Shown here one piece after another: positions 3,641 through 21,441 of a stretch of 43,442 nucleotides of DNA (within the stretch, counting starts at the first letter, position 1; each line of letters starts with the position of its first letter). The notes under the pieces were generated by a model. The model was not told where the DNA came from and did no database searches. It saw only the letters and a program-made list of their open reading frames with translations. The position numbers were made by a program, and so were the translations under genes. Where the stretch lies: the NCBI GenBank assembly GCA_030587475.2, contig JAUQYZ020000087.1, positions 1 through 43,442 on the forward strand, written 5' to 3'. Source of the DNA: Candidatus Sigynarchaeum calidifontis (GTDB taxonomy: Archaea > Asgardarchaeota > Lokiarchaeia > Sigyniarchaeales > Sigyniarchaeaceae).

Positions 3641-6600
3641 TTAGAAAATGTGCTTGGCCATGCATAGACCGTAGGCTGTTATCGTGAAGGTGTCCGTGAT
3701 CTCCCCCGCGGCGATCATCTCGGCAAATCGTCCGATAGGCACGTAAACCAGGGCATCGATCACCTCCGTGTCCTCTGGCGCCCGCTGCCCTACCCGTTCA
3801 AATTCCATTGCGGCAAAATAATGGACTTTCAAGCTTGATGTTCCCGAGTTATGCCAGAGCGTGGCGAGGGGGACGAGCTTGCCCTTGCAGCCGGTCTCCT
3901 CGAAAGCTTCGCGATTTGCCATCGCTTCGGGCGATTCCCCTTTTTTACCATAACCACGAGGTATCTCGAGCAACCATTGCTTGACCGGATACCGGTAAAC
4001 TTTAAGCAGCCCGATTTCCTTGTGAGGTGAAACGGGGAGTATCACGACGCCATCGATGCCGTCGTTCTCGACGATGACGTTGTATCGGCCCTCTTTTCCA
4101 CCTGGAAAACGAACGTGGTCGTAATAGAGCTTCACCCACGGGTTATCGGGAGATGAATAAACAAGCACCTTCTTTATCTGTTCTATCTGTTTTTTCATAT
4201 CATCACTTCCATCGACATTTTCAACGGGAACCATTGGTACTAGTCCGGGAAAATCGAGTGCAGGGATGTCATACATCGGGGAGATGGGCCGCGACCGCGA
4301 GACCGTGATAGCCAGCGGCCCGAGAATATCGGGTGTAATTGCACGTGGTTGCTCGGGGCTGATATCAGGGGGGATTTCTCTTTCCTCGGGAGGCGTTAAT
4401 TCTTTCTTGATGTATTCGTAATATGCGCTTTGGATCCCGACGAGCTCGCTCTCGCGACCGATGAATTTGGACACGTCGCGGAAAGCCTTGCGGAACTCGA
4501 TGCCGGGACTAGATTCACGCAATCGTAGGATGTCCTCGATATCGATACGCGCCAGCTCGATGCTCCGGATGGTGCCGGTGGAGGATTTCATACGGAAAAT
4601 GACATCCTTGCCAAGCTCAGCCTTGACAATGGGTGAAATGATGTCAAAAAGCTTTTTAGCTTGCTCATCGATGCTGAGTGCAAATCGGAAAACTATAGGC
4701 AAATTTGTCATGTATGCGCTGTCCGCAAGGATAGTGAACAAATGATGGTAGAACCAGGGCTTGCCAATCGCCTCGTTGCGTGCGTCCATCACGGTCTTGG
4801 CTGCTGTATCGCCAAGGCGCGCGATCGCATCCGCGAACTCTTTTTTAAACGCTGCATCGGAGGTCGGCTCCCGAAACAAGTTACCGAATTTGTAGAGCTG
4901 CGACCGGGTGAGCATGCCTCCTTCCAAGCAAGCTCGCACGAACTCGCGCATCGCGGGGATGATCTCCGCGACTCGGGCTGCATCATCACCACTAAAATTA
5001 TTCACGGTTTCCTTGCGTTCCAGCAGGCCCAGCGTGCGGCCACCATAATTGCCAGCGATGGTATCGAAATCGTACCAGTAAAATAAGTCCCGATGCTTTG
5101 AATAAAAGGCATCTAATGCAGTATAATAACTCGGATCTATTTTTTCGTGAAGAAAATCGGCCCGGTTTACCTGGCATTCTGTCCGGTATTCTGCAATAGG
5201 ATTTTCATTGGATACAAAATCGATGTCGACCTGAACCCCGGCTTTTTTCACCTTCTGGTGCCTGGGCAAGAGGGGACGGATCAAACCAAGATAGCGCTCG
5301 TCGGGCTTGCCGTCGCGCGACAGAACCTCGGTGATGAACACGCGAGAATTGAGCAAGAAATTCGGTCCGATAACCACCTTGTCGCTCGTGAGGAGTGCCC
5401 GGTGCAATTCAGCCTTTATATACGTCGCTTCGGGGATACCGAGAAGAAGCGCATTCGTGTTATCGAATGCTGGCACGTACGAAAGTAATTCTGGTCCAAT
5501 CATCACGGGTGATGTTTTCATGGCATCGGTAGACACTATGCTCTCGCGTGCTGACAAATGAGAATCCTTGATCCATCGTTCGATGAATTTGATGCCCTCG
5601 ATGCTTCCCGCGAGTATGGCTTGTTCGAGCGCGTCTCTTCCGAAGGTGTATGCCAGGTCCTCCAAGCCTGCAGCCTCGAGGCTCAATGCAAGCATTGCCG
5701 TGGGAACCCATGAATCGGGTAATGATCGCGCGTCCGGAAAGCCCTTCCGCATGAGTCTCACCGCGTCGGAAGCACGCTTGAATCCTTCACGCACGTCCCC
5801 CCGGGCGAGCGCATCGGCTGCCTGGTTCACGCACGTGGAAATCGCTACCTGGTCCGACGTGGATGTCCCGATATCCGGTCTCGACGCGATGGCTTTCGTG
5901 ATCGCCGCGTTGATTCCTTTGCTTGCACCCGGATCAGCACTGACCGGTAAGACAAGACGCCTCATAACCGCTTCGCTGGCCCCGACCAGCGCTGCCAGAT
6001 CGATCATGACCAGCCGGGCCCAGAACGTGCCGATGTCGCTTCCCCATTGCTTGATGCGACTCGCGAGAGCTGTATTGATGCCCGTGATCTTTCCGGGAAT
6101 GGCTGCACGGACGATTTGGAACCGGTTACCCATCTGTCGTGCAAGCATCTTGAACACGTCCGGTTCTGCATCGCCAGGCCGGACGAGCCAATGCACTGTT
6201 GCCAAGTCGCGCTCGGACTGCAACCGGAGGTAATTTAATCCGGTTTCTAGGTCGCCACCGCCAAATCCCATGAAGAACAAGGGGAATCGTTGTAAAATGA
6301 CAGATAAAACGTGAGCTATGGGCGCGGACAAGCCTTGAAGCCGCTGGGCTGCCGTGTCGACGCAGCTTTCAGGGTGTCGTGCAGTCCCGTGGAGTTTCAA
6401 GATGAACGCGTGGCTTTCCCGGCCGATGATGCCCGGGAACTGCGCGAGCAATTTAAAGCCACGGGGATTGTAAGCGACCACCACGTGCTTCGCCTGGTCG
6501 ATCCTCGATTGCTCATCCAATGCAGCACGATCCGTCGTTTCGTCCCCCGTGAGCTCGCACAGCCGTAGACCCCTGGCTACCAATGCATCCTCGATGCACC

Positions 6601-6994
6601 TATCGAAGTTCGTCGTGATGATCGCGGGAAAATCTCCGTTCTTGAGCCCTTCGGCAATCCAACCGTGGAACGCGTTCGGCTCGTGATTGGCAAGTGAAGA
6701 GATGACGGTCAAGTAATCTGAACCGAGCCGCTGCGCGATCGCCTCGGTCACCTCGAAAGCCTTGATCCGCCCTGCATAGAGATCATCGACGATTTGCCTT
6801 GACAAAACGATTTCTTTTGCTTCGGGAACTTGATCTTCCAGGGCAGATAGGATCATGGCGATGAACTTGTACCACGATGGTAGACTCGTGGGCTCGAACA
6901 TCGAAGCCGCGGAACCGAGGAAAGGGACGATTTTTTTCCCGGCGCTTCGTGTACTGGCGATTATAGTCTCGATTTCTGCGGGCATCTCGAGCAT
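3641..6994 (-). CDS. SIR2-like NADase / TPR-like / unknown domain / Nudix (ADP-ribose pyrophosphatase-like) fusion protein
   Basis: SIR2_2 motifs: IVPFLGSAAS...LPSW, IITTNFD, LKLHG, LFFMGFGGGD. C-terminal Nudix box GYGKKGESPEAMANREAFEETG fits GX5EX7REUXEEXG, with NudF-like YRYPV..WLLEIPRG and GEITD. Start placed at ATG 6994 (alternatives 6985, 7036, 7048). Confidence 0.85.
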   Translation of the reverse strand: MLEMPAEIETIIASTRSAGKKIVPFLGSAASMFEPTSLPSWYKFIAMILSALEDQVPEAKEIVLSRQIVDDLYAGRIKAFEVTEAIAQRLGSDYLTVISSLANHEPNAFHGWIAEGLKNGDFPAIITTNFDRCIEDALVARGLRLCELTGDETTDRAALDEQSRIDQAKHVVVAYNPRGFKLLAQFPGIIGRESHAFILKLHGTARHPESCVDTAAQRLQGLSAPIAHVLSVILQRFPLFFMGFGGGDLETGLNYLRLQSERDLATVHWLVRPGDAEPDVFKMLARQMGNRFQIVRAAIPGKITGINTALASRIKQWGSDIGTFWARLVMIDLAALVGASEAVMRRLVLPVSADPGASKGINAAITKAIASRPDIGTSTSDQVAISTCVNQAADALARGDVREGFKRASDAVRLMRKGFPDARSLPDSWVPTAMLALSLEAAGLEDLAYTFGRDALEQAILAGSIEGIKFIERWIKDSHLSARESIVSTDAMKTSPVMIGPELLSYVPAFDNTNALLLGIPEATYIKAELHRALLTSDKVVIGPNFLLNSRVFITEVLSRDGKPDERYLGLIRPLLPRHQKVKKAGVQVDIDFVSNENPIAEYRTECQVNRADFLHEKIDPSYYTALDAFYSKHRDLFYWYDFDTIAGNYGGRTLGLLERKETVNNFSGDDAARVAEIIPAMREFVRACLEGGMLTRSQLYKFGNLFREPTSDAAFKKEFADAIARLGDTAAKTVMDARNEAIGKPWFYHHLFTILADSAYMTNLPIVFRFALSIDEQAKKLFDIISPIVKAELGKDVIFRMKSSTGTIRSIELARIDIEDILRLRESSPGIEFRKAFRDVSKFIGRESELVGIQSAYYEYIKKELTPPEEREIPPDISPEQPRAITPDILGPLAITVSRSRPISPMYDIPALDFPGLVPMVPVENVDGSDDMKKQIEQIKKVLVYSSPDNPWVKLYYDHVRFPGGKEGRYNVIVENDGIDGVVILPVSPHKEIGLLKVYRYPVKQWLLEIPRGYGKKGESPEAMANREAFEETGCKGKLVPLATLWHNSGTSSLKVHYFAAMEFERVGQRAPEDTEVIDALVYVPIGRFAEMIAAGEITDTFTITAYGLCMAKHIF

Positions 6995-7136
6995 GGTCGC
7001 GTACCGCTGCACGTTTCTTCCAATGAATACCGTCATAAACCGTTCCACGCCATAAAAATCAGCGCGGGGTGGGAAAGTGAATATCCCCGATCAGCACATA
7101 ATCCTTATATCACGACCAAGGGAAGGTCGTAGCATC

Positions 7137-8733: not shown

Positions 8734-8755
8734 CCAGGTCATCATTGTGTCACCC

Positions 8756-9787
8756 ATGAAGGCAGCGGTTCTCGAAGCCGTGCGGAAGCTCGTCGTGAAA
8801 GATGTTCCCACGCCCAAGGCGACGGGCAACATGGCGCTCGTTCGGGTGAAAGCTTGCGGGATTTGCTTGACCGATTACAAGGCATATTCAGGCGACCGGA
8901 CGAACGTGACGTTCCCGACCATTTGTGGCCACGAGTTTGCCGGCATTATCGAGCAAGTGGGCGACAGCGTTCGGTTTTTCAAGCCTGGCGACGAGGTGAT
9001 CTGCGCGCCCGTGGCAAACTGCGGCATATGCCCTGAATGCCGAAAGGGTTTTGCTCAATATTGCAGATACGGGGCGGTCATCGGGGGTGACGGGATGAAA
9101 CACGTGCTCGATGGCGCCTTTGCCGAATACACGCTCGTCCCGGAAGTCGCGCTGTTCCACAAGCCGAAAAATGTCACGTTCGACGCGGCGGCGCTCACGG
9201 AGCCGCTGGCTGGCTCCTACAAGGGACTCATCGAGTACTCGCAGCTCAAGATCACGGAGGACCTCGTCATCATCGGCGCTGGTTCCATGGGCTTGCTCGC
9301 GGCCATGATCGCTCATCGTGCCGGGGCCAACACGATCATCATGGTCGACGTGAGTGATTGGCGCCTTGCATTTTCCAAGAATTGTGGAGCCACCCACACC
9401 ATCAATTCCACAAAGGTCGATGCGAAGAAAGCAGTCTACGACATCATCCCCGATGGCCCCGATGTCGTGTTCGAGGCCGCTGGGCCACTTTCTGCCGCAC
9501 AGCTAATGTTCGATCTTTGCCGGCGCGGCACCCGCGTCAATGAATTCGGTGTCACGACCGATGGTACCATCCAAATATCGCCAGCGAATATCCACTGGAT
9601 GGAAACGCGCATGGACGCGTCGTTCTCGGTTTATCCCCGCGCGATGCAGCAATCCATCAAGTTGCAAGAGAAAGGCTTCGTCGATGCTGGGAAGATCATC
9701 ACGCACCGGCTCGCTCTCGACAAGATCGAGGAAGGAATGGCGCTCATGAAGCAAGAGCATCGGGTCAAGGTCATCATCCAGCCGTGA
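8756..9787 (+). CDS. Zinc-dependent medium-chain alcohol/polyol dehydrogenase (MDR; sorbitol/threonine dehydrogenase-like)
   Basis: MKAAVL start, CGICLTD, GHEFAG, structural Zn motif CGICPECRKG..QYC, AALTEPLA and Rossmann GAGSMG. The real start is ATG 8756; the ORF-track extension overlaps the fucosidase gene. Confidence 0.92.
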   Translation: MKAAVLEAVRKLVVKDVPTPKATGNMALVRVKACGICLTDYKAYSGDRTNVTFPTICGHEFAGIIEQVGDSVRFFKPGDEVICAPVANCGICPECRKGFAQYCRYGAVIGGDGMKHVLDGAFAEYTLVPEVALFHKPKNVTFDAAALTEPLAGSYKGLIEYSQLKITEDLVIIGAGSMGLLAAMIAHRAGANTIIMVDVSDWRLAFSKNCGATHTINSTKVDAKKAVYDIIPDGPDVVFEAAGPLSAAQLMFDLCRRGTRVNEFGVTTDGTIQISPANIHWMETRMDASFSVYPRAMQQSIKLQEKGFVDAGKIITHRLALDKIEEGMALMKQEHRVKVIIQP

Positions 9788-9876: not shown

Positions 9877-12015
9877 TTACTTGAAGGCCTTGGCCTCGAT
9901 GTCTTTCAAGGAGTACTCGTCGCCCTCGCCGTGGATCGAGTACTTGATCTCGATCTCCTCGTTGGCGGCGACCTCCTTGAACGTCCACGTGAGCATCGTG
10001 CCGTCTTTCTGGCCGGCTTGCTCGGGCTCGATGTCCTTGACCTTCGATGCGCTGGTGACCGAGAAACCCTTTGGCACGAAGTCGGCAATCTTGACATCGG
10101 TCTTCGGCGAGTCGCCCTTGTTCTTGTAGATCAGGACGATGTCGTAATCGCCCTTGCTCTTCCCTGGGGCGATGGCCTTCCCGACGTGCGTGCGGCGGCG
10201 CTCGTGCGCGACCGTGATCGGGTCCGGCGTGAACGACCATTCGATGACACCCGATGGCTTGACGAACCCCTGGAAGAGGATGGGCGCCGTGTACTGCGTG
10301 TCCCGGGGCGGCTTGTACGCGACGAGCGGGTACGTGATCTTGATCTCGGTCTCGTCGTCGAGCTCGCCGATGTTTTCGAGCACGTCCTTGATGTCGATGA
10401 GCATCTTGCGTTCCACGCTCAAGTCGTCTCCCGCGGGTTCGAACTTGAATTCGAAATCGTCGGCAGGGATCTCCTTGTCCTCGATCATGATCTTCATGTT
10501 CTCCTTCAAGGGATTCTTGAAGTTGGCCGGGATGCGATCCTCGATGTGGATCTTGTCGATGGGCGCCTTGCCTTGCGTTTTCACCTCGACGAGAGCATCG
10601 ATCGTGCTTTCCCGGTACGACGCGATGCGGCTCTTCGAGAAGGTCTTCTTTCCTTCCAGCGCCAGGATGCGCAGCTCGATGGGCGCGATGGTCTGGCTCA
10701 TCGAGAGCTTGTACTCCGTGTCCGCGATGACCGAATAGACGATGTTCTCGCTGAACGTGGGCTCATCCTCGCTCTTGAGATCCCACGGTTTTGCCTTCCA
10801 CGTTTCACCGGGCGGGATGATCACGTCCGTGAGGATCTCGTCGATGACCTTGGTTTCCGTGTTCTCGTCGCCGAAGACGAAGTTGTACCGTTCCAGTTTC
10901 ATTGGAAACTCGGAGCGGTTGCGGAATTCGAACGTGCAGTCCCAGACATCTGGCTCCTCGTCGCGCTCGTCCCTGTCGACGAAGTGGATCTGGTCGGACC
11001 AGCCATCCACGAAGGTCGTCTTGAGACCACTATACGTGCCCGCGGCAACGAAGTATTTTGCCTTGATCTCGCCGCTCTTGAACGCTTTCTTCTCGTTCGT
11101 GCGCACCTTGATCTTGAGCTCCATGGACGCCTTCTTTCCGCCATCGAGCTCCTCGATCTTCCACACGACCTCGTCGCCGTCCCGCTTGGCCCTGCCGTCG
11201 CTCGTTTTCACGACATCCACGTCGTTGAAGTCGGGTGGTATCGCCTTGCGGATCTCGATCTCGCTGAGCTTTGCCTCGCCCGTGTTCTCGGCGGTGATCA
11301 CGATCTGGGCAACCTGGCCGCGCGAGTCCTTGTCATACACGAAGACCTGGCTTTTCTGCGCCGTCTCGGGGAACGTGTCGATCTCCTCGACGATCTTGAG
11401 CAATGGCGTGTCGTCCTTCCCGATCTTGATCTTGTATTCCTGTTTCCATTCCTCGCCGGGATCCAACTCGGGGATGTGGACCTCCTTGGGCAGGTCAGCC
11501 TTCTCGCCGCCCTCGAACGTGAGGTCGATGTCCCAGATCCGGTTCTTGCTGCCGCCGTTCACGACGGAAACCGTGCCGCTCACCGAGGATCCCGTGATTT
11601 TACCGTCGTACTCGGTCTGGAAATCGAGTGCCTCGACGATCGAGACCTTGTACTTGCTCTTCCCCTCCTCGCCGCGACGTTCGCGGGTCCTGGTCGAAGC
11701 GCTTTCATATTCATCACGCCTTGCGGACACTGCGGCTGCAGCAGTTCCTTCAACCGCTTTCACGCCTTCTACGTCCGCTACTTTACTAAAGAAGACCTGG
11801 AGGACTTGGTGGGTGGACGGGTCTATGCTCACGTCCCGGCCCTTGCTTTTTTCAAGGGCCTCCTTGAATGCATTGTTACTTTTTTTATCGAGCGTGGCGA
11901 CGATATCCTTGTAACTTTTCTCGACGCCCTTCATGTTCGTGTTACCCGACACGTTGAGCGCCGTATCCTTCAACTCGACGTCGCCAAAAGATAGCTTCCA
12001 TTTCTTCGATGCCAT
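9877..12015 (-). CDS. Cytoplasmic beta-sandwich protein with a mu-homology-domain (adaptor/COPI medium subunit)-like core plus DUF11/Ig-like repeats, paralogue 1
   Basis: No signal peptide or TM. Segments resemble mu-adaptin C-domain motifs: VSIVEALDFQTEYDGKITGSSVSGTVSV; IEIRKAIPPDF..SDGRAKRDGDEVVWKIEELDGGKKASMELKI; EIKAKYFVAAGTYSGLK. Full-length similarity to 18516..20642. The CDS is certain; the MHD call is by eye. Confidence 0.6.
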   Translation of the reverse strand: MASKKWKLSFGDVELKDTALNVSGNTNMKGVEKSYKDIVATLDKKSNNAFKEALEKSKGRDVSIDPSTHQVLQVFFSKVADVEGVKAVEGTAAAAVSARRDEYESASTRTRERRGEEGKSKYKVSIVEALDFQTEYDGKITGSSVSGTVSVVNGGSKNRIWDIDLTFEGGEKADLPKEVHIPELDPGEEWKQEYKIKIGKDDTPLLKIVEEIDTFPETAQKSQVFVYDKDSRGQVAQIVITAENTGEAKLSEIEIRKAIPPDFNDVDVVKTSDGRAKRDGDEVVWKIEELDGGKKASMELKIKVRTNEKKAFKSGEIKAKYFVAAGTYSGLKTTFVDGWSDQIHFVDRDERDEEPDVWDCTFEFRNRSEFPMKLERYNFVFGDENTETKVIDEILTDVIIPPGETWKAKPWDLKSEDEPTFSENIVYSVIADTEYKLSMSQTIAPIELRILALEGKKTFSKSRIASYRESTIDALVEVKTQGKAPIDKIHIEDRIPANFKNPLKENMKIMIEDKEIPADDFEFKFEPAGDDLSVERKMLIDIKDVLENIGELDDETEIKITYPLVAYKPPRDTQYTAPILFQGFVKPSGVIEWSFTPDPITVAHERRRTHVGKAIAPGKSKGDYDIVLIYKNKGDSPKTDVKIADFVPKGFSVTSASKVKDIEPEQAGQKDGTMLTWTFKEVAANEEIEIKYSIHGEGDEYSLKDIEAKAFK

Positions 12016-12501: not shown

Positions 12502-13887
12502 ATGGTCAAGAAACCAACGCTAACCCCGGCCGCTGTCAACGTGTTCAAGGCGCGCTTCGGTGACAAGAAAATCTTCTCCCAGGCCTTGATGCCAGTCCGC
12601 GGGGACAAGGGGTTCAGGAAACTGGACTATGATTTTGCAAAGACCTTGGATGCAGACGCCATCATCAAGAAATGCCGCGACAACGGCTTCAACGCGTTCG
12701 GGCTCGTCGTGAAAGACACCGACGGCGCGACGCTGGCAAATACCAAGCTCGGCTGGAACCCGACCGGCGTGGATTCGGCAAGGCTGTTCGAGGAGGCATG
12801 CCAGCGCTACAAGATGTTTTACATTCTATCGGTGACGAACATGAACGACGCGTACCGTGGTGCCGTCCATCCCGAGAGCGTTTCCGTTCACATCAAGAGC
12901 GGGAAGCCGAGCACGCACAAGGAAGGCGAGATGCGGGTCGACATTCCGCCCGGCAAGGACCTGGACGCGATGCGAAAACTCATCCCGTTCCTCACGTCGG
13001 AAAAGGAAGAGACAGCAGGAAAATCGCGAGGCGCCAGGGGCGTCGGGTACATCCCGATGACATCGTTTCACTGCCCGCGCAGCGACCACATCGATTACAT
13101 GATATCGATCGTGAAGGACCTGGTGAAAAACTATCACGTCGATGGTATATTCGCGGATTACATCCGGTACGATGGCGCGTATACCGATCTGTGCGGGTGC
13201 CATCGCTGCAAGGAAGGCTTTGCCGAAAAATACCCGGGCAAGAAGATGGGACGCGGGAAAGAGTGGTACGACTTCAAGGAGGACAACATCGCGGAGTACG
13301 GGCGAAAGTTCAATGCTGCGATCAAGGAGGTGGATCCGAACGTCGTCACGGGCTGGTTCAACCTCCCGGGGCCGAAGCTGTTCACCAGGAATCGCATCGC
13401 CCAGAACTACACGAAGCTCGGGGCGGCGCTCGATGTTCCCGTTCCCATGGTCTATCCCTATCTCATGGGCACCGCCGATGACGGCCGCAAGTGGCGCCTC
13501 CTCGCCGACATCGCGCACTGGTTTAGCCAGCTCACCATGAGCATGCGGTTCCACGAGTATGGGGCGGACAAGCCCGTGCTCGTGATCACGAACTCGGCAG
13601 AGTGCAATGCGGAAGAGCTCTTGATGCAGTGCAACACGTACGATTACGGCCTGGGCATCGCCGTCTTCTTGTACCACGGCACGACGGAGCAGCAATGGGC
13701 CGCTTGCAAGCTCTATGGCGACTTGCTCGCCAAGCAAAAAGCCGGTGATCCGGCACCCAGTGACGAGCAAATACGCCAGATCTTGATGCAAGTTTATGAA
13801 ACGCACCCGCCAAAGGATCCTCGCTTTTTAAAATGGAAGCCGTTGAAATCAGATGCGGTCAATTCTGTCAAGAAGCAAGAACGATGA
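12502..13887 (+). CDS. Putative glycoside hydrolase, GHL6/GHL10-like TIM barrel
   Basis: FNAFGLVVKDTDG, YHVDGIFADYIRYDG, CGCHRCKEGF, WYDFKEDNI and PMVYPY, which are typical of GHL6/GHL10-type hypothetical hydrolases. Confidence 0.6.
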   Translation: MVKKPTLTPAAVNVFKARFGDKKIFSQALMPVRGDKGFRKLDYDFAKTLDADAIIKKCRDNGFNAFGLVVKDTDGATLANTKLGWNPTGVDSARLFEEACQRYKMFYILSVTNMNDAYRGAVHPESVSVHIKSGKPSTHKEGEMRVDIPPGKDLDAMRKLIPFLTSEKEETAGKSRGARGVGYIPMTSFHCPRSDHIDYMISIVKDLVKNYHVDGIFADYIRYDGAYTDLCGCHRCKEGFAEKYPGKKMGRGKEWYDFKEDNIAEYGRKFNAAIKEVDPNVVTGWFNLPGPKLFTRNRIAQNYTKLGAALDVPVPMVYPYLMGTADDGRKWRLLADIAHWFSQLTMSMRFHEYGADKPVLVITNSAECNAEELLMQCNTYDYGLGIAVFLYHGTTEQQWAACKLYGDLLAKQKAGDPAPSDEQIRQILMQVYETHPPKDPRFLKWKPLKSDAVNSVKKQER

Positions 13888-16391: not shown

Positions 16392-17435
16392 TTATTTCTT
16401 GCGCACGTGCTCTATAATCTTGATGCCAAGTTCCTTGAAAGCCTCGTCGACGTTCTCGCCGGTCAAGGCCGACGTGAGCACGACCGGCATCCCGAGGGCT
16501 TTCGACAGCTCCGCGATTTCATGGTCGGTCACTCGCCGCTGGTCGGCCAAGTCGTGCTTGTTGCCGAGGATCAAGCCTGGCGTCTCGCCGATCAGCGACT
16601 TGATGTCGTTCGACCACGCGTAGACGCTTTTCAAGGTCTCTGGTTGCGTGAGGTCGAACACGAGCACGTGGCCGGATGCACCGCTGTAGAAACTCTTGCG
16701 AAACCGCTGGAACTTGGCCTGGCCAGCGAGATCCCAAAGCTGGAAGGAGAGATAGCAATTGGGGAGCTCGATGGTCTTGTCCGTGATGTTGGTGCCGAGA
16801 GTTGGCATGTACGTGCGCTTGAAGGCCTTGTCGGTGAACCTGAGCACCAGGGAGGTCTTCCCGACGGCGGGATCGCCGCAGATGATGCACTTGAACTTGA
16901 GGGTTTCTTTTACTTGAGATTGCGGCTGCTCCTCGTCGGCCGCGGGGAACGCAGTCGCCCCCCGGGGCGCCATCTCTTGCGCTCGGAACGACTCCACGAG
17001 GTCGACGGATTCCTTGAACATGGAAGCGACCAGTTCTCGAATCTTTTGCCAGTTGACCTTTTCCTCCTCTCCTTGAACGATCAGCTTCGAATATTTATCA
17101 AAAAGATGTTGGAAATCGTGGATGTACTTGTAAAAAATGATGTCGTTCTCCTCATCAAATACGAGGCACAAGGTTATGTCGCACGCGCGGCCCCGGCGCG
17201 TGGCATCGTGGTAACTGCCGAACTTGACATACGCCTTGAGAGACAGCCCGGGAATCGGGATGATGGCCAGCGCGTCGGGAATCTGATCCCGGCCGAATGA
17301 CAAGCCCATGGATTCCGAGGCCACTCGGTTCCGGGTCTCCTCCGAGATGGAATCTGGAAAACAATAGCTGGGCTTCGGCCCGAGCTTTTCGTCGAATTTC
17401 GAGTACACGATCCCGAGCACTGGAGTCTTTTCCAT
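16392..17435 (-). CDS. Longin/uDENN-like domain fused to a Rab-like small GTPase
   Basis: G1 GDPAVGKTS, G2 YMPTLG, G3 WDLAGQ, G4 GNKHD, G5 TSAL, and Rab-like F..FRKSFYSGA. The N-terminal VLGIVYSKFDEKLGPKP resembles the uDENN/NPRL2 longin start. Start set at ATG 17435 (ORF track gives 17537). Confidence 0.85.
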   Translation of the reverse strand: MEKTPVLGIVYSKFDEKLGPKPSYCFPDSISEETRNRVASESMGLSFGRDQIPDALAIIPIPGLSLKAYVKFGSYHDATRRGRACDITLCLVFDEENDIIFYKYIHDFQHLFDKYSKLIVQGEEEKVNWQKIRELVASMFKESVDLVESFRAQEMAPRGATAFPAADEEQPQSQVKETLKFKCIICGDPAVGKTSLVLRFTDKAFKRTYMPTLGTNITDKTIELPNCYLSFQLWDLAGQAKFQRFRKSFYSGASGHVLVFDLTQPETLKSVYAWSNDIKSLIGETPGLILGNKHDLADQRRVTDHEIAELSKALGMPVVLTSALTGENVDEAFKELGIKIIEHVRKK

Positions 17436-18515: not shown

Positions 18516-20642
18516 TTACTTGAAAGCCTTGGCCTCGATGTCCTTGAGCGATGCTTCATCGCTTTTTCCTTGAACCTTGTAGGACAGCTCGACCTCTTTA
18601 CCCGCTTCAACGTCGAACGTCCAGATGAGCATGGTTCCGTCGGCACGTTTCGTCGTCTCGCATTCGGGTTTTTGTGCCATCACGGCGAATTCCTTGGGCA
18701 CGAAATCCGAGACCTTGACGCCGGTCTTGTTGAAATCCGCCTTGTTCTTGTAGATGAGAACGATATCGTATTCACCCTTAGCCATGCCTGGCACGATGGA
18801 CTTGCCGACGGTCGTCTTGCGGCGCTGGTGCACTACGACGACGGATTGGGACGTTTCCATTTTACACTCGATGGGCGGGCCAGGCAATGTCAGGTAAGCC
18901 TGGAACAATGATTCCGTCTTGTACGTTGCATCGCGTTTCGGATGATGCACCATGACCGGATACTTGACCTGGATCGACGTGTTGTCCTCGATTTCACCGA
19001 AACGATCCTTGATTTCCTTTACATCGATGGTCATCTTGCGCTCGGTCGCGATGTCGTCGCCCGAATAGGCGACCGTGTACAATGTAGGATCGACCTTTTG
19101 CCCGGCGATAAACACTTCAATTTCCTTTGCATCGGGGTTCGCGAAATCGCGCGGGATGGTATCTTCCAGGTGCATCGATGCCACGGGCGCGGCACCGCGC
19201 GTTTTCACGTCTATGACCGCGTGGAGCAGGTTATCTCGGTAACTCTTCACTGCATAGGCATCGAACGTCTTGGTTCCCTCCAGGGCTAGGACGTGCAAGT
19301 CGAGGGGCTCGATCCACGTGCTATAAATCGTCTTTTGCACGATGTCGGGCGTGACCGTGAAGCCGACGGCCACGTCCTTGAATATGGCGACGACATTGTC
19401 CTTGAACCCGGGCTCGTCCGCGGACTCGATGGTGAATTTCTCCGACGTCCATGCACTGCCGGGATCGATGTCCGTGTTGGCATCCAGCGACACAGGGGTA
19501 ATCTTCCCGCCGGTGGTCTCGAACTTGAGCAAAATCTCGCCGAGATGCATGGGGAACTCGGACCGGTTCTCGATCGTCACGATCCCGTCCCAAACGTCAG
19601 GTTCCGTGTCGCGCTCATCGAGATCGAGGGAGAAAGCCGTCGATCCCCCGAGCAATATCTTGTCAGCTTTCAAACTTACACGCGTGTCGGATGCGATTTC
19701 ATATTCGACATCGATTTCACCACTCGAGTATGCCGTGATATCTTTTGGAAAGGCGCGTGCTTTCAGCTCCAGCGTTGCAGTCTCGCCAGGATTTAAATCC
19801 CCGACATCCCAGACTACTTCACCCGCGTCCCGTTTCGCACTGCCTCGGGATGCCGTGCCGATCGTGACCTCGCGAAAGACGTCGGTCACCTGTTTCGATA
19901 CCTTGAGCCCGGTAGCTATTTTCTGGCCGGAATTCTGCACGTTAAGCTTGAACGACGTGTCTTGCCCCTTTTCTTCCGCGTCGAGCACGAACACGAGCGA
20001 TGGCTGGGTTCCTCCTGGTGCAGTGTTTATTTCCTCCACGAGCTGGACGGGCGGCTTCGTGCCATCCTTGAATGCCATGCCGTATTCCCTTTTCCATTCC
20101 TCGCCTGCCCGCAACTCGTTCACGTGAAATTGGCGGCCTTCCAAGGTCGTGTCATCGCCGCCATCGACGTTGATGTCGATGTCCCAGACGGATTGCTTGT
20201 CGGCCTTGTTCACGATCGAGATAGAGCCTGCACCTTTCGCAGATTTGACCTCGCCATCATGTGATATCTCGTGGTTGATGATCTCCTCGATCATGGCGGA
20301 AATCTTCCCGCCCGGAGCACCCGCTTTCGAGCCCGAGGGAGAAGTCCTTTCGGGTTCCCGCTCCCGCTCTTCCACGTATTCCCCTTGGACACCTTCCTTT
20401 TCGCCGATTTTCGAGAAGTATGCATCGAGCTCCGCGCGGCGCTCCGGTTTGAAGGCGTACACGCGAGTTTTTTTCTTCTCGAAAACATTCATCAGTACCA
20501 TTTTGCTTTCATCGGACAAGCTGGCCGTTTCCTTGTATTTCTTGTCGAGACCCTTGTAATCGGTATCAGCACGTACGGTGAGCTTGTCGTCGAATAATTC
20601 CACGTGACCTATGGAAAGATCCCATATCTTCTTCCGAATCAC
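18516..20642 (-). CDS. Cytoplasmic MHD-like/DUF11-like beta-sandwich protein, paralogue 2
   Basis: Collinear with 9877..12015: shares WDIDI, GEEWK.EY, DERD.EPDVWD, NRSEFPM, LALEG.KTF, SYR, YDIVLIYKNK and the identical end SLKDIEAKAFK. Start set at GTG 20642, which follows an AGGTGG SD and matches the paralogue's N-terminus. The ORF-track extension overlaps the ThuA-like gene. Confidence 0.6.
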   Translation of the reverse strand: MIRKKIWDLSIGHVELFDDKLTVRADTDYKGLDKKYKETASLSDESKMVLMNVFEKKKTRVYAFKPERRAELDAYFSKIGEKEGVQGEYVEEREREPERTSPSGSKAGAPGGKISAMIEEIINHEISHDGEVKSAKGAGSISIVNKADKQSVWDIDINVDGGDDTTLEGRQFHVNELRAGEEWKREYGMAFKDGTKPPVQLVEEINTAPGGTQPSLVFVLDAEEKGQDTSFKLNVQNSGQKIATGLKVSKQVTDVFREVTIGTASRGSAKRDAGEVVWDVGDLNPGETATLELKARAFPKDITAYSSGEIDVEYEIASDTRVSLKADKILLGGSTAFSLDLDERDTEPDVWDGIVTIENRSEFPMHLGEILLKFETTGGKITPVSLDANTDIDPGSAWTSEKFTIESADEPGFKDNVVAIFKDVAVGFTVTPDIVQKTIYSTWIEPLDLHVLALEGTKTFDAYAVKSYRDNLLHAVIDVKTRGAAPVASMHLEDTIPRDFANPDAKEIEVFIAGQKVDPTLYTVAYSGDDIATERKMTIDVKEIKDRFGEIEDNTSIQVKYPVMVHHPKRDATYKTESLFQAYLTLPGPPIECKMETSQSVVVVHQRRKTTVGKSIVPGMAKGEYDIVLIYKNKADFNKTGVKVSDFVPKEFAVMAQKPECETTKRADGTMLIWTFDVEAGKEVELSYKVQGKSDEASLKDIEAKAFK

Positions 20643-20757
20643 TGGTTCCACCTTGACAATATCCAACAAGAACGACAACTCACGGGTTAATGAAGCTTCT
20701 GGTGGCCGGGGAAAAATCAGAACAATGGAATCGATGATCCGGGTGAAAAAAAAGTAC

Positions 20758-21441
20758 CTATCGCTGACGCGTTGCCCAGAGAAGCCCCCGCTTGAGGATC
20801 TCCCTCGCCTCGGGCACTTCGAAGTCAACATAGGTATGACCATATGACATGTAGAAGATCTTGCCATCGCCCCACGTGCGCTTGTAGACGACGGGCATGA
20901 CCACGCCATCGATCCACGGCATCGCGATGTTATGGAAAGTGGTCGTGCAGAGCACTTCCCCGTTCACGCCTTGCAAGATGGCCGGGTCGACATTGATGTA
21001 GTATTGTTCCGATTTCAAGTGAAATCCCTTGAGCCCCTTGACGATGGGATCGTCCTTTTTCGCCTCGACGATGTCCACGTCATAGTCGACGATTCCGCCC
21101 GGGTGGGCGACCCAGTTGCTGCCCGTGAAAAACTCGTAATCCGTCGACTGCCGGAAGGAATCGTTCATGCCACCGTGCCAGCCGACGAAGCCGAGCCCGT
21201 CCATGACCGCCGCGATGAGTCCCTTGACTTGCTTGTCCTCGATTGTCGACATGGTCCAGCATTGCACGAGCAAGTCGAGCGACTCGAGATACTTCTCATC
21301 CTCGTATATCTTGAGCGTTTGCTTGACGTCGACCTCGTATCCGGCCTCTTCGAGAATGTCTTGCACGAGCATCGACGACGCGGAGGGCGTGTGCCCGTCC
21401 CAACCACCCCACGTGATACAAGCCTTCGGTTTTCTCGTCAT
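20758..21441 (-). CDS. ThuA-like domain protein (class I glutamine amidotransferase-like fold)
   Basis: WGGWDGHTP, DLLVQCWTM, GLGFVGWHGGMNDSFR, WVAHPG, SEQYY and WGDGKIFYMSYGH. ATG at 21441 with TTATAAAG about 40 nt upstream. Confidence 0.85.
   Translation of the reverse strand: MTRKPKACITWGGWDGHTPSASSMLVQDILEEAGYEVDVKQTLKIYEDEKYLESLDLLVQCWTMSTIEDKQVKGLIAAVMDGLGFVGWHGGMNDSFRQSTDYEFFTGSNWVAHPGGIVDYDVDIVEAKKDDPIVKGLKGFHLKSEQYYINVDPAILQGVNGEVLCTTTFHNIAMPWIDGVVMPVVYKRTWGDGKIFYMSYGHTYVDFEVPEAREILKRGLLWATRQR

Follow-up and report, generated by a model that had tools for sequence, protein, structure and literature searches.

The window analysed here is a 43,442-nucleotide stretch of Candidatus Sigynarchaeum calidifontis (assembly GCA_030587475.2, contig JAUQYZ020000087.1, positions 1 to 43,442), and the gene in question occupies positions 9,877 to 12,015 on its reverse strand. 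Our results show that the product of this Asgard gene is a cytoplasmic all-beta protein with several domains, and that its core is truly homologous to the mu homology domain (MHD) found in the mu subunits of the eukaryotic adaptor complexes AP1-4 and in COPI delta. In clathrin adaptors, COPI, stonins and muniscins, the MHD is the module that binds cargo and partners. Profile comparisons further show that subdomain B of the archaeal MHD and the two C-terminal immunoglobulin (Ig) domains are copies of a single DUF11/CLIPPER-type (CnaA-like) sandwich. The data as a whole are best explained, with fair probability, by a genuine MHD-core protein with DUF11 repeats that probably serves as an adaptor or scaffold. 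The weight of the result is moderate, because Asgard MHD-like proteins have already been published; what is added here is the homology at fold level, the rigid and widely kept four-domain module, the relationship of subdomain B to the DUF11 repeats and the reach of the module beyond Asgard archaea.

Evidence for the mu homology domain

The core was recognised by the Pfam profile PF00928 (Adap_comp_sub) with an E-value of 1.2e-8 and 35.1 bits, against a curated gathering cut-off of 31.6, and residues 116-337 were matched to profile positions 9-234 of 259. When the 5-Mb host genome was searched in six frames with the same profile, the MHD gene was the sole match, and no match was found in any of the 14 control genomes searched (0/14). 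Only AP-2 mu2 chains were returned by phmmer from all PDB sequences. The initial annotation, made from the letters of the sequence, had described an MHD-like core with three mu2-like segments in the right order, and the HMMER alignments to AP-2 mu2 reproduce them: the opening hairpin aligns with mu2 residues from about 172 to 202, residues 250-349 align with mu2 319-417, and the motif pairs are IEIRKAIP/IEVRIPTP, VVWKIEEL/IVWKIKRM and YSGLK/PSGLK.

A profile of the full-length family reached an E-value of 1.5e-3 against the PDB, which was no gain over the single sequence. A domain-level profile, made from residues 118-349 of 91 diverse family members, was slightly better and widened the matches to mu1, mu3 and delta-COP. 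At E-values below 0.01 it found MHDs only, namely AP-3 mu (1.1e-4), AP-2 mu, AP-1 mu and delta-COP, and its alignment with delta-COP extends over subdomain A too. The protein is thus not just a row of tandem DUF11/Ig domains lacking a mu or delta-COP profile match, as PF00928 scores above its cut-off and the family profile matches both mu and delta-COP.

The structure was predicted with AlphaFold2 from a 35-sequence alignment without templates. The model has a mean predicted local distance difference test (pLDDT) value of 84, and its beta structure is uninterrupted from the end of the linker at residues 90-117 to residue 700. In the structure comparison that the initial annotation had called for, Foldseek ranked mu2 C-terminal domains from the PDB at an E-value of 6e-11, with template modelling (TM) scores of 0.61-0.68 (target-normalised); as judged from the model, the homology extends to the fold for every class of MHD with a solved structure. 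One rigid-body alignment spans subdomain A, subdomain B and the C-terminal return, and the sequence alignment puts residues 313-349 on mu2 394-417, which together argue for an interleaved A/B topology. We infer from these alignment ranges that in the predicted fold subdomain B is inserted into subdomain A, as in the two-sandwich topology of MHDs.

DUF11/CLIPPER repeats

Pfam DUF11 (PF01345) matched the protein with an E-value of 3.8e-13 and 50.2 bits (cut-off 24.6) in two stretches, of which the best, residues 233-308, falls within MHD subdomain B (228-312). When the parts of the protein were compared with one another by hhalign, subdomain B matched residues 606-700 at 97.8% (E 7.5e-13) and residues 446-605 at 93.7% (E 2e-7), and the latter two matched each other at 96.5% (E 8e-10). 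The start of the intervening unit at 350-445 is weakly DUF11-like, with 62.7% to residues 606-700 over 21 columns only. An inserted Ig-like unit and two further repeats resembling subdomain B and DUF11 had been noticed already in the initial annotation, and the hhalign values of 93.7-97.8% to subdomain B confirm the description of the two repeats.

DUF11, recently renamed CLIPPER, has been shown to be an Ig fold of the CnaA-like kind in fibrillar adhesins. It frequently contains a Lys-Asn isopeptide bond, formed by a Lys on the first strand and an Asn on the penultimate strand with a catalytic Asp. The Lys and Asp positions of this site are kept in the two C-terminal copies (K457/D493 and K613/D645). 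In contrast to the CLIPPER adhesins, the Asgard protein is cytoplasmic without a signal peptide and has no conserved Asn for the bond: in a sequence-level comparison of the family alignment, no conserved Asn was found on the penultimate strands. It also differs in that one copy is inserted in another sandwich, with which it forms the MHD.

Gene, protein and domain architecture

The product of 712 amino acids starts with an ATG at 12015, and an alternative GTG four codons upstream is possible. This exact product is already deposited in public protein collections. The gene is convergent with a Zn-alcohol dehydrogenase (Zn-ADH) gene (8750-9787, forward strand) and divergent from a GHL10-like gene (12502-13887, forward strand), and therefore appears to be a transcription unit of its own. 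The closest named relatives are proteins from Candidatus Sigynarchaeota metagenome-assembled genomes (MAGs; 72% identity) and from Lokiarchaeota, Helarchaeota, Hodarchaeota and 'Promethearchaeota', which places the source of the window in the Loki lineage of Asgard archaea. Homologues from Loki-, Hel-, Hod- and Sigynarchaeota were found with E-values down to 0.

No signal peptide or transmembrane segment was detected in the 712-residue protein (P0001), the maximum KD19 value being 0.8, and none of the 190 family proteins examined has an N-terminal hydrophobic segment, a credible transmembrane helix or a sorting signal. The cytoplasmic location follows from this lack of N-terminal hydrophobic segments (0/190), and the earlier claim that neither a signal peptide nor a transmembrane segment is present can be extended to the family proteins examined.

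The order of the domains is a small N-terminal alpha/beta domain, a disordered charged linker, the MHD, two Ig-like domains and a conserved C-terminal tail. The features are as follows, all on the reverse strand.

9877..12015, reverse strand: whole gene, an open reading frame (ORF) of 2,139 nt with 712 codons and the stop codon at 9877-9879
11749..12015, reverse strand: N-terminal domain, residues 1-89, three short strands and then four helices in the AlphaFold2 model
11665..11748, reverse strand: charged linker, residues 90-117, predicted to be disordered (pLDDT below 50)
10681..11664, reverse strand: MHD in the broad sense, residues 118-445
Residues 118-227, segment of the MHD: subdomain A, part 1
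11080..11334, reverse strand: MHD subdomain B, residues 228-312, with the PF01345 match and the hhalign repeats
Residues 313-349, segment of the MHD: return strands
10681..10968, reverse strand: family-specific seven-strand beta unit, residues 350-445
10201..10680, reverse strand: Ig-like domain 2, residues 446-605, a DUF11/CnaA-type fold that resembles Gram-positive pilin domains
9916..10200, reverse strand: Ig-like domain 3, residues 606-700, DUF11/CLIPPER-type by hhalign, with weak TIGR01451 and NPCBM_assoc matches at 622-669
9880..9915, reverse strand: C-terminal tail, residues 701-712, conserved, with a predicted helix at 703-709

The N-terminal domain is confined to the protein's own orthogroup and to a paralogue in the same window. 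It had no Pfam match at E-values up to 10 (residues 1-95 or 1-118 searched) and no usable match in a feature search of the ESM-Atlas, and its structural matches in the Atlas were all unrelated helical proteins with TM scores of 0.53 or less. We also considered whether this domain is a longin (Clat_adaptor_s, PF01217), and rejected this on its three strands and four helices and on the lack of a Pfam match or a longin-like Atlas match; the sole PF01217-like match in the genome was sub-threshold and on a different contig.

According to the alignments, about 100 residues within 117-445 are without a counterpart in mu2, and most of them fall in the unit at 350-445. This unit has no sequence counterpart in mu2, and its last strands align structurally with the MHD C-terminus. 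About 70-95 residues of beta structure that mu2 lacks separate the SGLK strand region from the end of the fold. The unit at 350-445 starts with the stretch that is best conserved in the family (E350, P355, W358, C360, N366 and S368). The last 11 residues of the C-terminal tail, SLKDIEAKAFK, are identical in the paralogue. As a separate observation, C360 (10936-10938, with the flanking block at 10903-10968) is the sole Cys of the protein; it is invariant in the orthogroup and conserved in 82% of 169 diverse relatives.

Comparison with eukaryotic MHD proteins

Compared with the mu subunits of AP-1 to AP-4 (PF00928; residues 160-435 of AP-2 mu2), the Asgard protein is recognisably similar in sequence at the opening hairpin, in subdomain B and at the SGLK return strand, and a disordered charged linker ahead of the MHD is found in mu2 as well. 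However, it lacks the N-terminal longin domain of the mu subunits, carries the additional residues in the MHD described above, and has two more Ig domains and a conserved tail after the MHD, and no adaptin or sigma genes lie nearby. The same differences apply to the MHD of COPI delta-COP (PDB 4o8q, 5fjw), which, unlike that of the Asgard protein, comes after a longin domain and a long helix. The muniscins and stonins (muHD, PF10291; Syp1, FCHo, SGIP1) are alike in having a stand-alone MHD without a longin domain, the role of a protein-interaction hub being that of the muniscins, whereas the F-BAR and other muniscin domains are absent from the Asgard protein; its PF10291 match, at 14 bits and an E-value of 0.038, stayed below the cut-off of 25 bits. 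Orthology to mu or delta-COP was considered and rejected, as the longin domain is lacking and there are no adaptin-trunk or sigma genes alongside. In the gene neighbourhoods covered, that is, the window and 8 related loci, no adaptin-N, sigma or COP genes were seen, which still leaves room for a heterotetramer with two large adaptin/COP trunk subunits and a sigma/zeta subunit.

Of the residues with which mu2 binds Tyr motifs, F174 and D176 are paired with K123 and S125 by HMMER, within a segment scoring only 1.7 bits. W421 and R423 of the YxxPhi pocket lie beyond the aligned region, and the invariant W358 and C360 may or may not correspond to them. Canonical YxxPhi binding by the Asgard protein is doubtful because F174 and D176 are apparently not conserved.

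Family, distribution and prior description

An exhaustive HMMER search over 1.84 billion representative sequences found 346 relatives at E-values up to 1e-3, and 135 at E-values up to 1e-30. Nearly all align over residues from about 120 to 705 and have variable N-termini, with HEAT and NACHT domains among the N-terminal extensions. The module of about 590 amino acids is collinear in 169 relatives, with an occupancy of at least 0.84 throughout. Among the Asgard genomes sampled, the module was present in 253 of 301 genomes and in 65 of 71 genera at E-values up to 1e-10, and in about 224 of 301 genomes at E-values up to 1e-30; the families without a match are mostly small-genomed. Some of the Asgard members also carry Pfam PF27408 (AF2028_C).

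The MHD-plus-Ig module is not strictly specific to Asgard archaea, as it is found in at least one euryarchaeal MAG. A protein of 1,021 amino acids from a 'Methanobacteriota archaeon' MAG (P0218) matched the MHD profile in hhalign at 99.9% with an E-value of 8.8e-33, its contig being only 5.6 kb long and its binning as deposited. In addition, an ESM-Atlas cluster of 52 members, most commonly from Thermoplasmatota, reached a TM score of 0.60 over 572 residues to the AlphaFold2 model.

The existence of stand-alone MHD-like proteins in Asgard archaea is already published, and is thus a solid result but not a new discovery. Supplementary Table S3 of Eme et al. (2023, Nature 618:992) includes 44 PF00928 (Adap_comp_sub) candidates among the Asgard eukaryotic signature proteins. 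Entries of that table from Hel- and Lokiarchaeales contain the family motifs PDVWDC and NRSEFP, and a Jordarchaeial entry is a related sequence with the same block order; the candidates belong to the same protein family. The paper gives a Pfam-level detection of a stand-alone domain, and a structure match, a fixed four-domain module or the DUF11 repeat relationship do not appear in the accessible parts of its text and supplements. In the literature that we searched, the Asgard mu homology domain or Adap_comp_sub was not found in the main texts, and the other Asgard papers covered do not treat the family. Nor did that literature yield an account of the distribution, of the four-domain module, of the structure match or of subdomain B being a DUF11 domain.

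Genomic context

A full-length paralogue lies 6.5 kb away (18516-20909, reverse strand, with the likely true start near 20657). BLASTP gives about 37% identity to the MHD protein, and the genome search gives 40% over the module. The paralogue shares the N-terminal domain as well as the module, and DUF11 is its only Pfam match. Relatives with as little as 54% identity (loci L004, L005 and L016) retain the gene pair and, next to the paralogue, an EamA transporter gene. Between the two genes lies a Rab/Ras-like GTPase gene (16395-17435, reverse strand) whose N-terminal domain of about 170 amino acids has a longin topology (beta-beta-alpha-beta-beta-beta-alpha-alpha), and the Atlas feature search with this domain leads to NPR2 and C9orf72-like clusters. 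This longin-Rab has 6 paralogues in the host genome, and the order of MHD gene, longin-Rab gene and paralogue is kept in the close relatives L004 and L016. In Helarchaeota, a full-length longin-Rab orthologue with 40% identity (L007, 8702-9766) is found 235 bp upstream of the MHD gene. Two Helarchaeota MAGs (L017, 12196-14481; L007, 12233-13621) have a predicted coiled-coil protein of about 420 amino acids encoded 51-60 bp downstream of the MHD gene on the same strand, the L017 protein being a fusion with an Arf/Sar-like GTPase and one more C-terminal domain.

The enrichment of GTPase genes was assessed using one GTPase hidden Markov model for loci and background alike, with flanks of 10 kb. 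The 75 GTPase ORFs of the host genome give a chance of 0.25 of at least one within such flanks, and a GTPase gene was present within 10 kb in 6 of 9 dereplicated loci of the orthogroup (binomial p about 0.01). A complex prediction of residues 1-450 of the MHD protein with longin-Rab scored 0.00, which speaks neither for nor against binding.

A different context was seen in a 'module-only' subfamily of about 600 amino acids, where a gene of about 240 amino acids with a metallo-beta-lactamase fold (HxHxDH) lies directly upstream and co-directional, with gaps of 40-145 bp. The pair was seen at six loci belonging to four GTDB families and resembles a conserved operon of two genes. The metallo-beta-lactamase-fold genes are as follows.

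L024, 8839-9567
L025, 11382-12083
L026, 10971-11690
L028, 8287-9003
L033, 8262-8969
L040, 8308-9012

Proposed function and alternative explanations

By analogy with the eukaryotic MHD proteins, we tentatively lean towards a soluble adaptor or scaffold. It would use the edges of its beta-sheets to bind partner proteins or short peptide motifs, and the invariant block around E350-P371 would be the best candidate for the interaction site. Further docking surfaces may be provided by the conserved C-terminal tail and by the Ig domains, and the small GTPases encoded nearby could possibly exert control. Several observations weigh against such a role. The GTPase link is modest and should be taken as a lead, not as proof, as its background comes from a single genome and the related genomes are not independent; moreover, the distant subfamilies are at background, with a GTPase gene in 4 of 23 loci. 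The immediate neighbours of the MHD gene are metabolic (fucosidase, Zn-ADH, GHL10-like) and not conserved. The cargo-binding residues F174 and D176 of mu2 are apparently not conserved, in a weak segment of the sequence alignment, and it is in surface adhesins that DUF11/CLIPPER and pilin-like domains typically occur. Finally, the homologues in the euryarchaeal MAG and in the Thermoplasmatota-dominated cluster place the module outside Asgard archaea, and it is therefore not tied to the trafficking toolkit shared by Asgard archaea and eukaryotes.

The spread beyond Asgard archaea, the metabolic neighbours and the seemingly unconserved Tyr-motif residues would also suit a generic cytoplasmic Ig/DUF11 scaffold that shares ancestry with the MHD and is unrelated to membrane traffic, as would the apparent operon of the shorter subfamily with a metallo-beta-lactamase-fold gene instead of trafficking genes. 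Such a scaffold could be structural, cytoskeleton-associated, involved in envelope assembly or enzyme-organising, and the eukaryotic MHD would later have taken over the fold only. We find this main alternative somewhat unlikely, as the only solved relatives by sequence are the MHDs of coat adaptors, GTPase genes are enriched beside the orthogroup and directly adjacent in Helarchaeota, and the family is kept in most Asgard lineages alongside other trafficking-like proteins (Eme et al., 2023). The kept Lys and Asp positions of the CLIPPER isopeptide site could hint at an exported surface stalk or adhesin of DUF11/CLIPPER and pilin-like Ig domains, in which the resemblance to the MHD would be incidental to function. 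However, this is very improbable given the 190 relatives without a signal peptide, transmembrane segment or sorting signal, the missing penultimate-strand Asn that would complete the site, an architecture fixed at four domains with no variation in repeat number, and the HEAT and NACHT extensions of relatives, which are typical of cytosolic proteins. A resemblance of unrelated beta-sandwiches by chance or by composition is hardly credible as the source of the MHD similarity: beta-sandwich folds do recur often and the E-values of the single sequence and the profile against the PDB are only 1e-3 to 1e-4, but the Pfam score is above the curated cut-off, nothing else was matched in the host or control genomes, and all PDB matches below 0.01 are MHDs of four paralogous eukaryotic families.

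Origin of the MHD and significance

Where the MHD came from is relevant to the emergence of vesicle coats in eukaryogenesis. One speculative scenario, which we regard as unlikely in its entirety, is that the eukaryotic MHD arose in archaea by insertion of a DUF11/CLIPPER-type Ig domain in another beta-sandwich, and that the archaeal module is the surviving ancestral form, which would already have been a primitive cargo or partner adaptor controlled by GTPases in Lokiarchaeia and Helarchaeia. If so, the mu subunit would have been formed later by joining a longin domain to the archaeal MHD, and the GTPase partners would be the longin-Rab fusion and the neighbouring coiled-coil-GTPase proteins. 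Subdomain B as a repeat of a prokaryotic DUF11/CLIPPER Ig domain offers a concrete and testable route to the origin of the MHD. At the same time, the reach of the module beyond Asgard archaea makes it less useful for marking a eukaryote-like trafficking system. Experiments on partners and localisation may be feasible, since the family is present in most Asgard lineages and, at the level of lineages, cultured Lokiarchaeia are among them.

Other genes in the window

The fucosidase, ADH, GHL10-like, RHH, HGSNAT-like and EamA genes were considered as functional clues and set aside, as they are not conserved beyond close relatives. The window also encodes, at 3641-7048 on the reverse strand, a protein of 1,135 amino acids that has a SIR2_2 domain at its N-terminus and a NUDIX domain at its C-terminus.

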